From assembly GCA_000182565.2 (NCBI GenBank), contig KQ257455.1: a stretch of DNA of 64,000 bases, one strand, 5' to 3'. Below are positions 39,490-43,426 of the stretch, in pieces. The position numbers were made by a program, and so were the translations under genes. The notes below the pieces were generated by a model that worked only from the letters and a program-made list of their open reading frames with translations, did not search any database and was not told the DNA's origin. Every line of letters begins with the position of its first letter. The first letter of the stretch is position 1. This stretch comes from Spizellomyces punctatus DAOM BR117 (Eukaryota).

Positions 39490-40015
39490 ATGCATCCTCT
39501 TCCCCAATTACCGTCCGTTCTATCTTCATCCCGAACGTCTGCTCCCCAAAACACAGTCCCTATAGATCCCACCCTCATTGATGAAATTGAAAAGACTGCT
39601 GAGCAGGTATCAGCCGATGTCGTTCGGTTTCTCGGTAATTTGAAAACACGAATGGACGAGGTAGCCTAAGCAATGATGTTGCCGACTCGGCTCTTGAAAG
39701 TTGCGGTCTCAACTCTGACTGATGTAGATCACGTCATATACCCATGAATCTGTTGGCGTCAACCGACAAGCTGTAAATTCCCTTTCACATTCAATAGAAG
39801 AATCCATTGACCAAATGACAGGACTGATCAATGCTGTGGACGAATTAAGTCATGATATGACGGCCGTGCAGACGTTAGCCGGAGAAATGTGGGTGTTTAT
39901 CTCGTCACTTTGGGCAACGCGCGTCCGGACCTGATGATGCTTACTTCCAATATAAACCCCCAGCAAGACAATAAAAGATGCACTGGATCGAGTAGAGTCG
40001 ATTATTGGGAAGTAA
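39490..40015 (+). CDS. BORCS6: BLOC-1-related complex subunit 6 (lyspersin/DUF2365)-like, 3 exons
   Basis: PIDPTLIDEIEKTA...AVNSLSHSIEESIDQMTGLINAVDELSHDM...LAGEI|KTIKDALDRVE matches the recalled BORCS6 C-terminal domain pattern. Confidence 0.78.
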
Positions 40016-40058
40016 TGCTCGAATAGAGGCAAAATTGGAGAATACGGAAGGCTTATAA

Positions 40059-40950
40059 GCCTGTTGATTGAAAGCACTTGCTATCATTTTCTTTCCAAAG
40101 AATTGGGCAATCGGCGTGACCCACGTATAGAGCAAGGCAGGTCAGGCCGCAGCCGTACTCTTCGAAGAGGAAAAATGGAGTTGGGTTTTCAATAAATATA
40201 TCCAATCCGCACTCCGCGCACCTCAACCTGTTCTCCAAGTACGTTCGGGGCTCATGTCTCAGCGACCCAACCAGCTCGCAAGGGGATTGCTTGAAGCGCG
40301 AGCCATACCTGAACGCAAAGGGGCAAGCACGTAGCTTTAACGGGGGCCCATCCCAAGGGATTACCACCCGTTCCTTCTTGCTCGCAGTAGTACTCATCCC
40401 AAAGCTGACTGGTAAGCGCGAGTTACAAGTGCCCGTTATCCGCGCAAGACGGTCTAAGCCCACCCAACTTGCATAAGCCCTCCGGCACAGCGACCTAGGA
40501 TCCTCTTTATGTTGTAGTTTGCCACCCGCTGGATGACAAATCCAGTCAAAGAGGACCATAAAATACTGGATGGGGCCGGCCTTTCTGACAGATTATTCCC
40601 GAGGGTCAAATCCCGCCATAATTACCGTCAAAGCGGAGTCTCCACTGCGCAGATGTTCTCGAGCCTTTTGGGCGAGACAATGCACATTAAAGTCTCTACG
40701 CTTCGACACACACTTAGGGTTAGGTTCTCCCAGCGGATCTGCATTTTGGACGAGCCACATCACATGGAGGGCACACGATCCAGTTTGCAAATCTTTTGGT
40801 TGAAGGCCATGGTGGTCAGGCTGTTACGGGTGCACCAACTTGCGAGAGCAACAAAACCGCATATTATGAAAGGCTTATACAGGCTTAGCGGATCTTTTGT
40901 CGAGAACAGGGAGGCGGGATGAACATCCGGAAGTGGGGAAGAGATGAGGA
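40059..40950 (-). ncRNA. Candidate telomerase RNA (TR/TER); ends approximate
   Basis: Template CUAACCCUAA (40723-40714); boundary helix directly 5' of it; pseudoknot 40571-40499; 14-bp core-enclosing helix 40881-40868 with 40483-40470; long stem with a three-way junction 40272-40101; ANANNA (40094-40089) and ACA (40064-40062); upstream TATA. Confidence 0.85.
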
Positions 40951-40975
40951 AAACAGCCAGCGCGACCTGCCGTTG

Positions 40976-40983
40976 TTTTTATA
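40976..40983 (-). promoter_or_regulatory. TATA box of the candidate telomerase RNA
   Basis: TATAAAAA on the minus strand followed by a pyrimidine-rich stretch and no recognisable CDS. Confidence 0.65.
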
Positions 40984-41127
40984 GCGCGTAGAGCTACAAC
41001 CCTGGTGGCTGGCTGTTTCATTTAGGATCCCTGTGACGTAAACTGTTCAAAGTCAGCTCGTCCCCGTGGGAGGATGGGGGAGCATCTTTACACATCTGCA
41101 TCCGCCATCTTCTTTCTTCAAAGTACA

Positions 41128-42523: not shown

Positions 42524-43426
42524 ATGGGCAAACGGAAATCTCGCCCTCACCCCAGTAAAATATCAAAAAGCACAGCGCCTTCCCAACGCTTCCCCACTCT
42601 CTCCTCCCTCACCAGAACGGAGCTCCTTCTGCAAACTTTAAGAACGTCCCAGCCTTCCAATCCCGCACACCCATTCAAACTAAACCAACGGATTCTCCTC
42701 ATTGGCGAAGGCGACTTTTCGTATGCTCGTGCTCTCGCAACTTCCCTTGGCAAAGGCCAGAATATCATCGCAACATCCTTTGACACTAAGCCGGCGCTGA
42801 TACAAAAGTACCCGCATGTGCAGACCATACTGGGTGAACTGGTGTCTTCCGGTGTGACAATTCTTCATAACGTCGACGCAACCGCCCTCACTTCCAACAG
42901 CAGGTTGAGCGCTCTTACGGCACAAAACAAGTTTGATCGTATCGTTTTTCAGTTCCCGCATGTGGGAGGGAGTCAGCAGGCCGATGTTGAGCAAAACAGG
43001 GCCCTCTTATCAAACTTTTTCGCCCAGGCACAGCAATTGATGAATGCTAATGGTGAAATCCACGTAACGCTACGGGATACTCCTTTTTACCGACAGTGGA
43101 GCATTGAGGATCTGGCCTTGAAAGAAGGTTTGGCAATGAAACAGCGTGTTCCGTTCGAAGGGGAGCGGATGCAGGCGCTTGGCTATACACCTCAAAGGAC
43201 CCATCCGGCTGTTCGGGATGCTCCGACCCTTGAGAACGCCTTTGTGCACGTTTTCGAGATGCGGGCCGACAAGCCTGCTACAAAAAAGAAGGAAGATATT
43301 CCATCGCATGGGCTGGCAAGGAACATGAAAACAGCATCAGCGTCGACCATACCCAAAAAGTCGAGGGCCGGTGCCATTGGCAAAAAACCGAAACAGATGC
43401 GCGGAAAAAGGGGAACAAAGAGATGA
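42524..43426 (+). CDS. 25S rRNA uridine-N3 methyltransferase BMT5-like (DUF2431), intronless
   Basis: RILLIGEGDFSYARAL, IATSFD, ILHNVDAT, FDRIVFQFPHVG, GEIHVTL; basic termini. Confidence 0.9.
   Translation: MGKRKSRPHPSKISKSTAPSQRFPTLSSLTRTELLLQTLRTSQPSNPAHPFKLNQRILLIGEGDFSYARALATSLGKGQNIIATSFDTKPALIQKYPHVQTILGELVSSGVTILHNVDATALTSNSRLSALTAQNKFDRIVFQFPHVGGSQQADVEQNRALLSNFFAQAQQLMNANGEIHVTLRDTPFYRQWSIEDLALKEGLAMKQRVPFEGERMQALGYTPQRTHPAVRDAPTLENAFVHVFEMRADKPATKKKEDIPSHGLARNMKTASASTIPKKSRAGAIGKKPKQMRGKRGTKR

Follow-up and report, generated by a model that had tools for sequence, protein, structure and literature searches.

The DNA analyzed here (the window) is a stretch of 64,000 nucleotides (nt) from contig KQ257455.1 of the chytrid Spizellomyces punctatus DAOM BR117 (GenBank assembly GCA_000182565.2). 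Two plus-strand genes in it flank a gap on either side, with exons matching BORCS6 to the left and exons matching DUF2231 to the right; both Pfam assignments are weak, each coming from a single exon and lying under the curated cut-off (E values, 7.5e-6 and 3.8e-5, respectively). The gap gives rise to a discrete noncoding RNA from the opposite strand, and this RNA is probably the telomerase RNA of the Spizellomyces chytrid. The identification is supported by the presence of a candidate template and a pseudoknot, in canonical order, inside the helix-enclosed core of a discrete, noncoding, TATA-driven RNA. An earlier sequence-only reading of the same DNA had proposed an unannotated minus-strand telomerase RNA gene at this site; its transcript, the absence of coding signal, the pseudoknot, and the enclosing helix were borne out, whereas the boundary helix and the length did not survive in the form proposed, and the CR4/5 domain and the 3′ element gained no support above chance level. 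Coordinates of the main features are collected in Table 1.

Expression was assessed with stranded raw reads (X12) together with three metatranscriptome runs (X1, X2, and X5), from two studies. Approximately 6% of the X12 run was read, which accounts for the low depth obtained from it. The plus-strand neighbors were represented in X12 only or mainly in the plus sense (first mate on plus), and reads across 40324-40939 were exclusively first-mate-on-minus, at a depth of 0.17 to 1.3 per bin and of 3.78 in the bin covering 40863-40939. Depth was 0 in 40940-41016, no reads of either sense fell in 40247-40323, and the bin at 40170-40246 was covered in the minus sense at a depth of 0.66. Contigs from the three metatranscriptome runs were restricted to the gap, and depth was 0 over BORCS6, the promoter gap, and DUF2231 in all three; these silent flanks serve as a control against DNA carry-over. 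The reads and contigs thus place a discrete minus-strand RNA between ~40940 and 40185, with its strand and approximate ends observed directly, and give it a length of ~0.75 kb in place of the ~0.9 kb initially proposed. The TATA box claimed at 40983-40976 was confirmed there on the minus strand (TATAAAAA), and the RNA starts ~37 to 60 nt downstream of it.

The candidate template lies on the transcribed strand. It had been placed at 40723-40714, where CUAACCCUAA is indeed present on the minus strand, but the telomeric match is one base longer and runs from 40724 to 40714 (CCUAACCCUAA). The 10-mer CTAACCCTAA has a single site in the window when both strands are considered (0.08 expected), with at least one site in 8 of 100 shuffled sequences, and a search with TTAGGGTTAGGG allowing one mismatch returned matches at the template site alone. 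In the thermodynamic ensemble, the first five bases of the template (CCUAA) were unpaired with a probability of 0.85 to 0.92 and the rest with a probability of 0.2 to 0.8; the CCCUAA part had the lower unpaired probability, and local pairing with GGG is possible there. Among other chytrids, (TTAGGG)n telomeres are described for Batrachochytrium in the excerpted text of two papers (PMC9926174, PMC11797018).

A helix at the 5′ edge of the template was predicted, with a partner other than the one first proposed. The sequence-only reading had paired GUUGCUCUCGC (40852-40842) with GCUGGGAGAAC (40734-40724) as the boundary element. Both strands are present and, by eye, are able to form 10 bp with two bulges, but this was rejected as the favored pairing: the pair probability (P) was 0.04 to 0.05 in the ensemble and ~0 when the template was held open. 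The candidate template boundary element is instead a stem-loop ending at the template 5′ edge (40804-40725), whose inner helix (40793-40786 / 40743-40736) had a P of 0.97. When the template was held single-stranded and stem 2 of the pseudoknot was enforced, this stem-loop was predicted to grow by CCA/UGG and UUC/GAA (P, 0.65 to 1.0) and to abut position 40724.

As described in the excerpted text of Qi et al. (PMC3592445), the pseudoknots of vertebrates and non-yeast fungi consist of two contiguous helices with an upstream loop of 4 to 5 uridines that forms triples with the second helix, and the downstream loop is variable and may contain an extra helix. Search criteria were drawn from this description; in their loose form, they called for a stem 1 of at least 5 bp, a stem 2 of at least 7 bp, a loop 1 of 4 to 10 nt with at least 4 U, and three U-A pairs near the junction. 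A pseudoknot had been claimed without coordinates, and an H-type pseudoknot was located at 40571-40499, with a stem 1 of 7 bp and a stem 2 of 11 bp that has a UUU/AAA end. The template and the pseudoknot share a strand and an enclosed domain, with the pseudoknot 143 nt to the 3′ side. The complementarity and the U-rich loop are both present, and the triple helix is a candidate. Among dinucleotide-shuffled sequences, 17/1000 contained a pseudoknot passing the loose criteria and 0/1000 one with a stem 1 of at least 7 bp and a stem 2 of at least 10 bp; since the thresholds were set after the candidate had been seen, the loose figure is the safer of the two. Across both strands of the window, three sites passed the loose criteria, and the candidate was the only one with a stem 1 of at least 6 bp and a stem 2 of at least 8 bp.

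Two long-range helices organize the predicted fold. In the terminal helix, the first 44 nt of the RNA pair with 40235-40200, with a duplex energy of -39.3 kcal/mol that was equalled by 9/2000 shuffles and by 3/2558 real segments of 50 nt, a count in which the true partner may itself be included. The second helix, 40896-40868 / 40483-40456, surrounds both the template and the pseudoknot and is prolonged by pairing of 40824-40814 with 40495-40487. A helix closing the core had likewise been claimed without coordinates, and the one found here is beyond chance, its duplex energy of -33.3 kcal/mol being equalled by 0/3998 real 32-nt segments of the window. The 441-nt core inside it folded with a z score of -3.03, and none of 100 shuffles folded as well. 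The long-range helices and the complementarity of the pseudoknot are nonrandom.

Table 1. Features of the gap between BORCS6 and DUF2231, in window coordinates (P, pair probability)
Feature	Position	Strand	Details
TATA box	40976..40983	-	TATAAAAA; ~37 nt before the highest-numbered bin with reads; sequence read directly
Transcribed noncoding RNA	40185..40940	-	~750 nt; stranded reads and contigs; ends approximate
Metatranscriptome contig, X1	40185-40917		733 nt
Metatranscriptome contig, X2	40346-40899		555 nt
Metatranscriptome contigs, X5	40577-40727 and 40733-40909		
Terminal helix, 5′ strand	40902..40945	-	Pairs with 40200-40235; P 0.81-1.00; ~28 bp
Core-enclosing helix, 5′ strand	40868..40896	-	Pairs with 40456-40483; P 0.75-0.88
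Stem-loop ending at template 5′ edge	40725..40804	-	Candidate template boundary element; predicted pairing
Candidate template	40714..40724	-	CCUAACCCUAA; 11 nt; 1.8 repeats of the TTAGGG complement
Long stem-loop directly 3′ of template	40627..40707	-	P 0.82-0.99
Pseudoknot stem 1, 5′ strand	40565..40571	-	AUCCAGU
Pseudoknot loop 1	40558..40564	-	AUUUUAU; U-rich; candidate triple-helix strand
Pseudoknot stem 2, 5′ strand	40547..40557	-	GGUCCUCUUUG; P 0.93
Pseudoknot stem 1, 3′ strand	40540..40546	-	ACUGGAU; adjoins stem 2, zero unpaired bases between
Pseudoknot loop 3	40510..40539	-	30 nt; 9-bp hairpin 40539-40531 / 40527-40519, then A-rich CUACAACA
Pseudoknot stem 2, 3′ strand	40499..40509	-	UAAAGAGGAUC
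Core-enclosing helix, 3′ strand	40456..40483	-	P 0.75-0.88
P6.1-like hairpin	40440..40452	-	CCGU-CUUGC-GCGG; 4-bp stem, NUNGN loop; P 0.80; significance doubtful
3′ domain	40248..40434	-	Long irregular stem capped by predicted three-way junction; junction closing helix 40386-40380 / 40303-40297
Terminal helix, 3′ strand	40200..40235	-	Pairs with 40902-40945; P 0.81-1.00
168-aa open reading frame	40559-40053	-	Longest in gap
129-aa open reading frame	In gap	+	

Taken as a telomerase RNA, the element could work as follows. The TATA-box promoter would drive a minus-strand noncoding RNA of ~750 nt (~40940 to 40185), the ends of which would pair in the terminal helix, with the second long helix enclosing a catalytic core. 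Within the core, the predicted order is the template-abutting stem-loop, the 11-nt template, further stem-loops, and the H-type pseudoknot, and TERT would bind here. The telomere would align its 3′ end with CCUAA, the 3′ portion of the template, and copying of the 5′ portion would add GGTTAG in each round, until the abutting helix halted copying at the template 5′ edge. The U-rich loop 1, lying in the groove of stem 2 at its UUU/AAA end, could form the base triples required for telomerase catalysis.

The 3′ part of the RNA is less well defined. A three-way junction corresponding to CR4/5 had been claimed, and one is present in the minimum-energy fold at 40386-40297, but it does not stand out from chance: its closing helix had a P of 0.56, and the 3′ domain at 40434-40248 was no more stable than shuffled sequence (z, -0.80; 42/200 as good). 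This domain may be the equivalent of CR4/5. The region was also scanned for the P6.1 signature of a 4-bp stem with a 5-nt NUNGN loop, as given in the excerpted text of PMC3592445. One P6.1-like hairpin was identified in 861 nt, where by our estimate ~1 is expected by chance; it sits at 40452-40440, between the core and the 3′ domain and outside any P5/P6/P6.1 junction. A candidate 3′ stability element had been put forward as well, and no specific element could be confirmed. Inspection of the 3′ part by eye for H/ACA-like features and a canonical Sm site gave nothing convincing.

An AU-rich sequence, AUAUAUUUAUUG, comes after the terminal helix; it is similar to fungal polyadenylation elements and to a degenerate Sm site, and could be either. 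On the RNA strand, five consecutive uridines (U5) first occur at 40175-40171, slightly outside the contig limit of 40185, with none inside the RNA. This run is compatible with a terminator of RNA polymerase III (Pol III), and equally with chance; since by our estimate a 760-nt RNA would lack U5 with a probability of ~0.6 anyway, it does not decide on Pol III. Neither AUAUAUUUAUUG nor the U5 run settles the choice between Pol II and Pol III or the 3′-end pathway.

Several observations weigh against the identification as telomerase RNA. By our arithmetic, a genome of tens of Mb is expected to hold dozens of chance telomeric matches of 10 to 11 nt; at genome scale the telomeric motif alone is weak evidence, and its context must carry the weight. 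The boundary helix as first proposed has a P of ≤0.05, the 3′ domain folds no better than shuffled sequence, and the 861-nt scan revealed no P5/P6/P6.1 junction like those of vertebrates or filamentous fungi. Thresholds for the pseudoknot were chosen with the candidate in view, the depth of the stranded run was low (~1), and the RNA ends are approximate. Folding of 40185-40945 as the minus strand gave -274.4 kcal/mol (z, -5.2; 0/20 shuffles as stable), compared with a z score of -1.07 for the plus strand; however, its fold energy ranked only 9/254 among GC-corrected real 761-nt windows from both strands (z, -1.98), and thermodynamic stability alone is therefore not a strong argument.

Database searches also count against the identification in that they returned no relative. 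The comparison with Rfam that the sequence-only reading had called for gave 0 matches in the window at gathering score, and no Rfam telomerase family matched even at an E value of ≤10 when 2 kb and the 761-nt transcript were searched. Weak matches to sR28, sR19, Rothia-sucC, and mir-2822 lay far under the thresholds of those families and were rejected. The telomerase RNA families in Rfam include vertebrate, ciliate, Saccharomyces, and Ascomycota models. Telomerase RNAs diverge fast, each major lineage having been found anew, and a missing Rfam match is usual for a new lineage. One metagenome scan with a degenerate template-plus-flank pattern likewise yielded no relative, so that the helices lack covariation support. 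All seven loci that it returned (L001-L007) were dismissed as chance matches, their likeness being confined to the search pattern in 7/7; one of them, L006, has dense overlapping long open reading frames of the high-GC prokaryote type. An identical stretch surrounds the chance match to the template pattern in L005 (9125-9147) and L006 (3174-3196).

The strongest competing explanation, which nevertheless appears unlikely, is that the gap encodes an unrelated structured long noncoding RNA, which could be stable RNA transcribed divergently from the DUF2231 promoter or antisense to the BORCS6 3′ untranslated region (UTR), and that the motifs arose by chance. Its geometry fits, as the DUF2231 gene, on the other strand, is ~400 to 500 bp from the start of the RNA, and the 3′ end of the RNA overlaps the BORCS6 3′ UTR (~40185-40246). 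The missing metagenome relative, the missing canonical CR4/5, and the rank of 9/254 in fold energy also count in its favor. Against this, a sense-strand telomeric 10- to 11-mer would occur by chance in a given 750-nt RNA with a probability of ~0.001 to 0.004 (our arithmetic), and a telomerase-type pseudoknot with a probability of 0.017 under the loose criteria and of <0.001 under the strict ones; here the two occur within one helix-enclosed domain and in canonical order. The assembly of this RNA in three metatranscriptome runs in which both neighbors had a depth of 0 further speaks against an unstable by-product.

Far less probable is that the RNA is part of a protein-coding transcript, whether from an unannotated small gene or from a neighbor that has an alternative exon or a long UTR here. 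Two open reading frames, of 168 aa (minus strand) and 129 aa (plus strand), occur in the gap, and isolated minus-sense reads continue further downstream, at 39554-40092. However, the earlier statement that the gap holds no recognizable protein was upheld: none of the nine open reading frames of 48 to 168 aa in or beside the gap had a Pfam match, and the 168-aa frame, the longest, had no homologue at an E value of ≤0.01 among 51 candidates out of 5.8 billion proteins. This frame overruns the contig end at 40185, taken as the RNA 3′ end, by ~130 nt, and it opens ~380 nt into the RNA, preceded by several upstream AUGs. No splice joint connecting the RNA region to either neighbor was found in the read data, and coding signal is absent from the RNA. 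The least credible explanation is a technical origin of the RNA signal, from noise or DNA carry-over, with the motif being a short interstitial stretch of telomere-like DNA that has no function as RNA. Metatranscriptome libraries can contain DNA and the stranded run was shallow, but carry-over would also have covered the silent flanks, the contigs end in the interval from the TATA box to the terminal helix, and the X12 reads over 40324-40939 are all of one sense.

As a telomerase RNA, the Spizellomyces candidate shares several features with those of Pezizomycotina and Taphrinomycotina (Neurospora crassa TER and Schizosaccharomyces pombe TER1), as far as these are described in the excerpted text of Qi et al. 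(2013; PMC3592445). These include a long TATA-driven RNA; the order of core-enclosing helix, template-adjacent boundary helix (a prediction in the candidate), template, and pseudoknot; contiguous pseudoknot helices with a U-rich upstream loop; and an extra helix in the downstream loop of the pseudoknot, comparable to PK2.1. The candidate template is, like that of Neurospora, of the TTAGGG type, but at ~0.75 kb the candidate is far shorter than N. crassa TER, the numbering of which exceeds nt 1850 in the same text (PMC3592445). It further differs from the TERs of these two groups in having no detected P5/P6/P6.1 junction with a 4-bp P6.1 and NUNGN loop (861-nt scan) and no detectable sequence or model similarity (Rfam, E value ≤10). 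In addition, neither a canonical Sm site nor a 3′ end of the splice-site type was seen.

Resemblance to vertebrate telomerase RNA extends to the 11-nt candidate template for the same repeat, the U-tract of loop 1, the UUU/AAA end of stem 2, the A-rich end of loop 3, and the closing of the core by a long-range helix. Unlike vertebrate telomerase RNA, the candidate matches no Rfam family at an E value of ≤10 and shows, by eye, no H/ACA-like two-hairpin 3′ domain with an ACA close to the 3′ end; its 3′ end instead pairs with its 5′ end. The ter1 RNA of the basidiomycete Ustilago maydis is also fungal, has TTAGGG-type repeats, and was found through a template search combined with structure, according to the excerpted text of PMC10035886; it belongs to another phylum and was compared by description only.

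No description of a chytrid telomerase RNA was found in Creative Commons papers in PubMed Central (PMC) or in bioRxiv, and an earlier identification elsewhere is possible. The sole claim found for a non-Dikarya fungus is an unconfirmed ciliate-like candidate in Lichtheimia, in the excerpted text of PMC4133162, and a term search of a 2016 review (PMC4993307) gave no mention of chytrids or basidiomycetes. The RNA described here is likely, with somewhat less assurance than its identity as a telomerase RNA, to be the first telomerase RNA from fungi outside Dikarya: a compact molecule of ~750 nt in which a template and a triple-helix pseudoknot of the vertebrate type occur together with 5′ and 3′ ends that pair as in yeast, and which may either be missing the canonical P6/P6.1 junction or have a single isolated P6.1-like hairpin beside the core. 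From a chytrid telomerase RNA, it could be seen which features predate the split of fungi and animals, among them the template-adjacent boundary helix, the triple-helix pseudoknot, P6.1, and the 3′-end pathway. If the identification is correct, the RNA would serve Dikarya as an outgroup and form a bridge to animals for reconstructing the telomerase RNA of the animal-fungal common ancestor, and it could seed a model for finding telomerase RNA in other zoosporic fungi. It would not be a new kind of system, and its interest to the telomerase field would be that of an outgroup. Spizellomyces punctatus is genetically transformable, as stated in the excerpted text of PMC7213984.

Comparison of the metatranscriptome contigs with the window revealed four differences, too few for testing the structure. 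Three are strain variants, namely, C>T at 40349 in a bulge, G>A at 40748, which turns a G-C pair into G-U, and the absence of one base at 40670 in a loop. The fourth is an extra A after 40589 in the X1, X2, and X5 contigs, within a predicted helix; it could reflect strain variation or an assembly error of one base.

Further observations concern the surroundings of the RNA gene. The plus-strand BORCS6 gene contains a 75-nt GT..AG intron at 39889-39963, seen in three spliced reads from X12, and its 3′ UTR reaches ~40246, giving a convergent overlap of 40 to 60 nt with the 3′ end of the minus-strand RNA (~40185-40246). An intronless 300-aa open reading frame at 42524-43426, 1.5 kb from the RNA gene, strongly matches the BMT5-like rRNA (uridine-N3) methyltransferase family (E value, 6.6e-49) and could serve as a synteny anchor. 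A 543-aa open reading frame of the window shares 94% identity with a protein of Spizellomyces sp. 'palustris', 53% with one of Phlyctochytrium arcticum, and 43% with one of Geranomyces variabilis, which places the window in a Spizellomyces chytrid. The RNA gene and the DUF2231 gene are divergent and have an upstream region in common, in which TTACGTCA, a CRE/ATF-like site, occurs at 41030-41037 on the minus strand.

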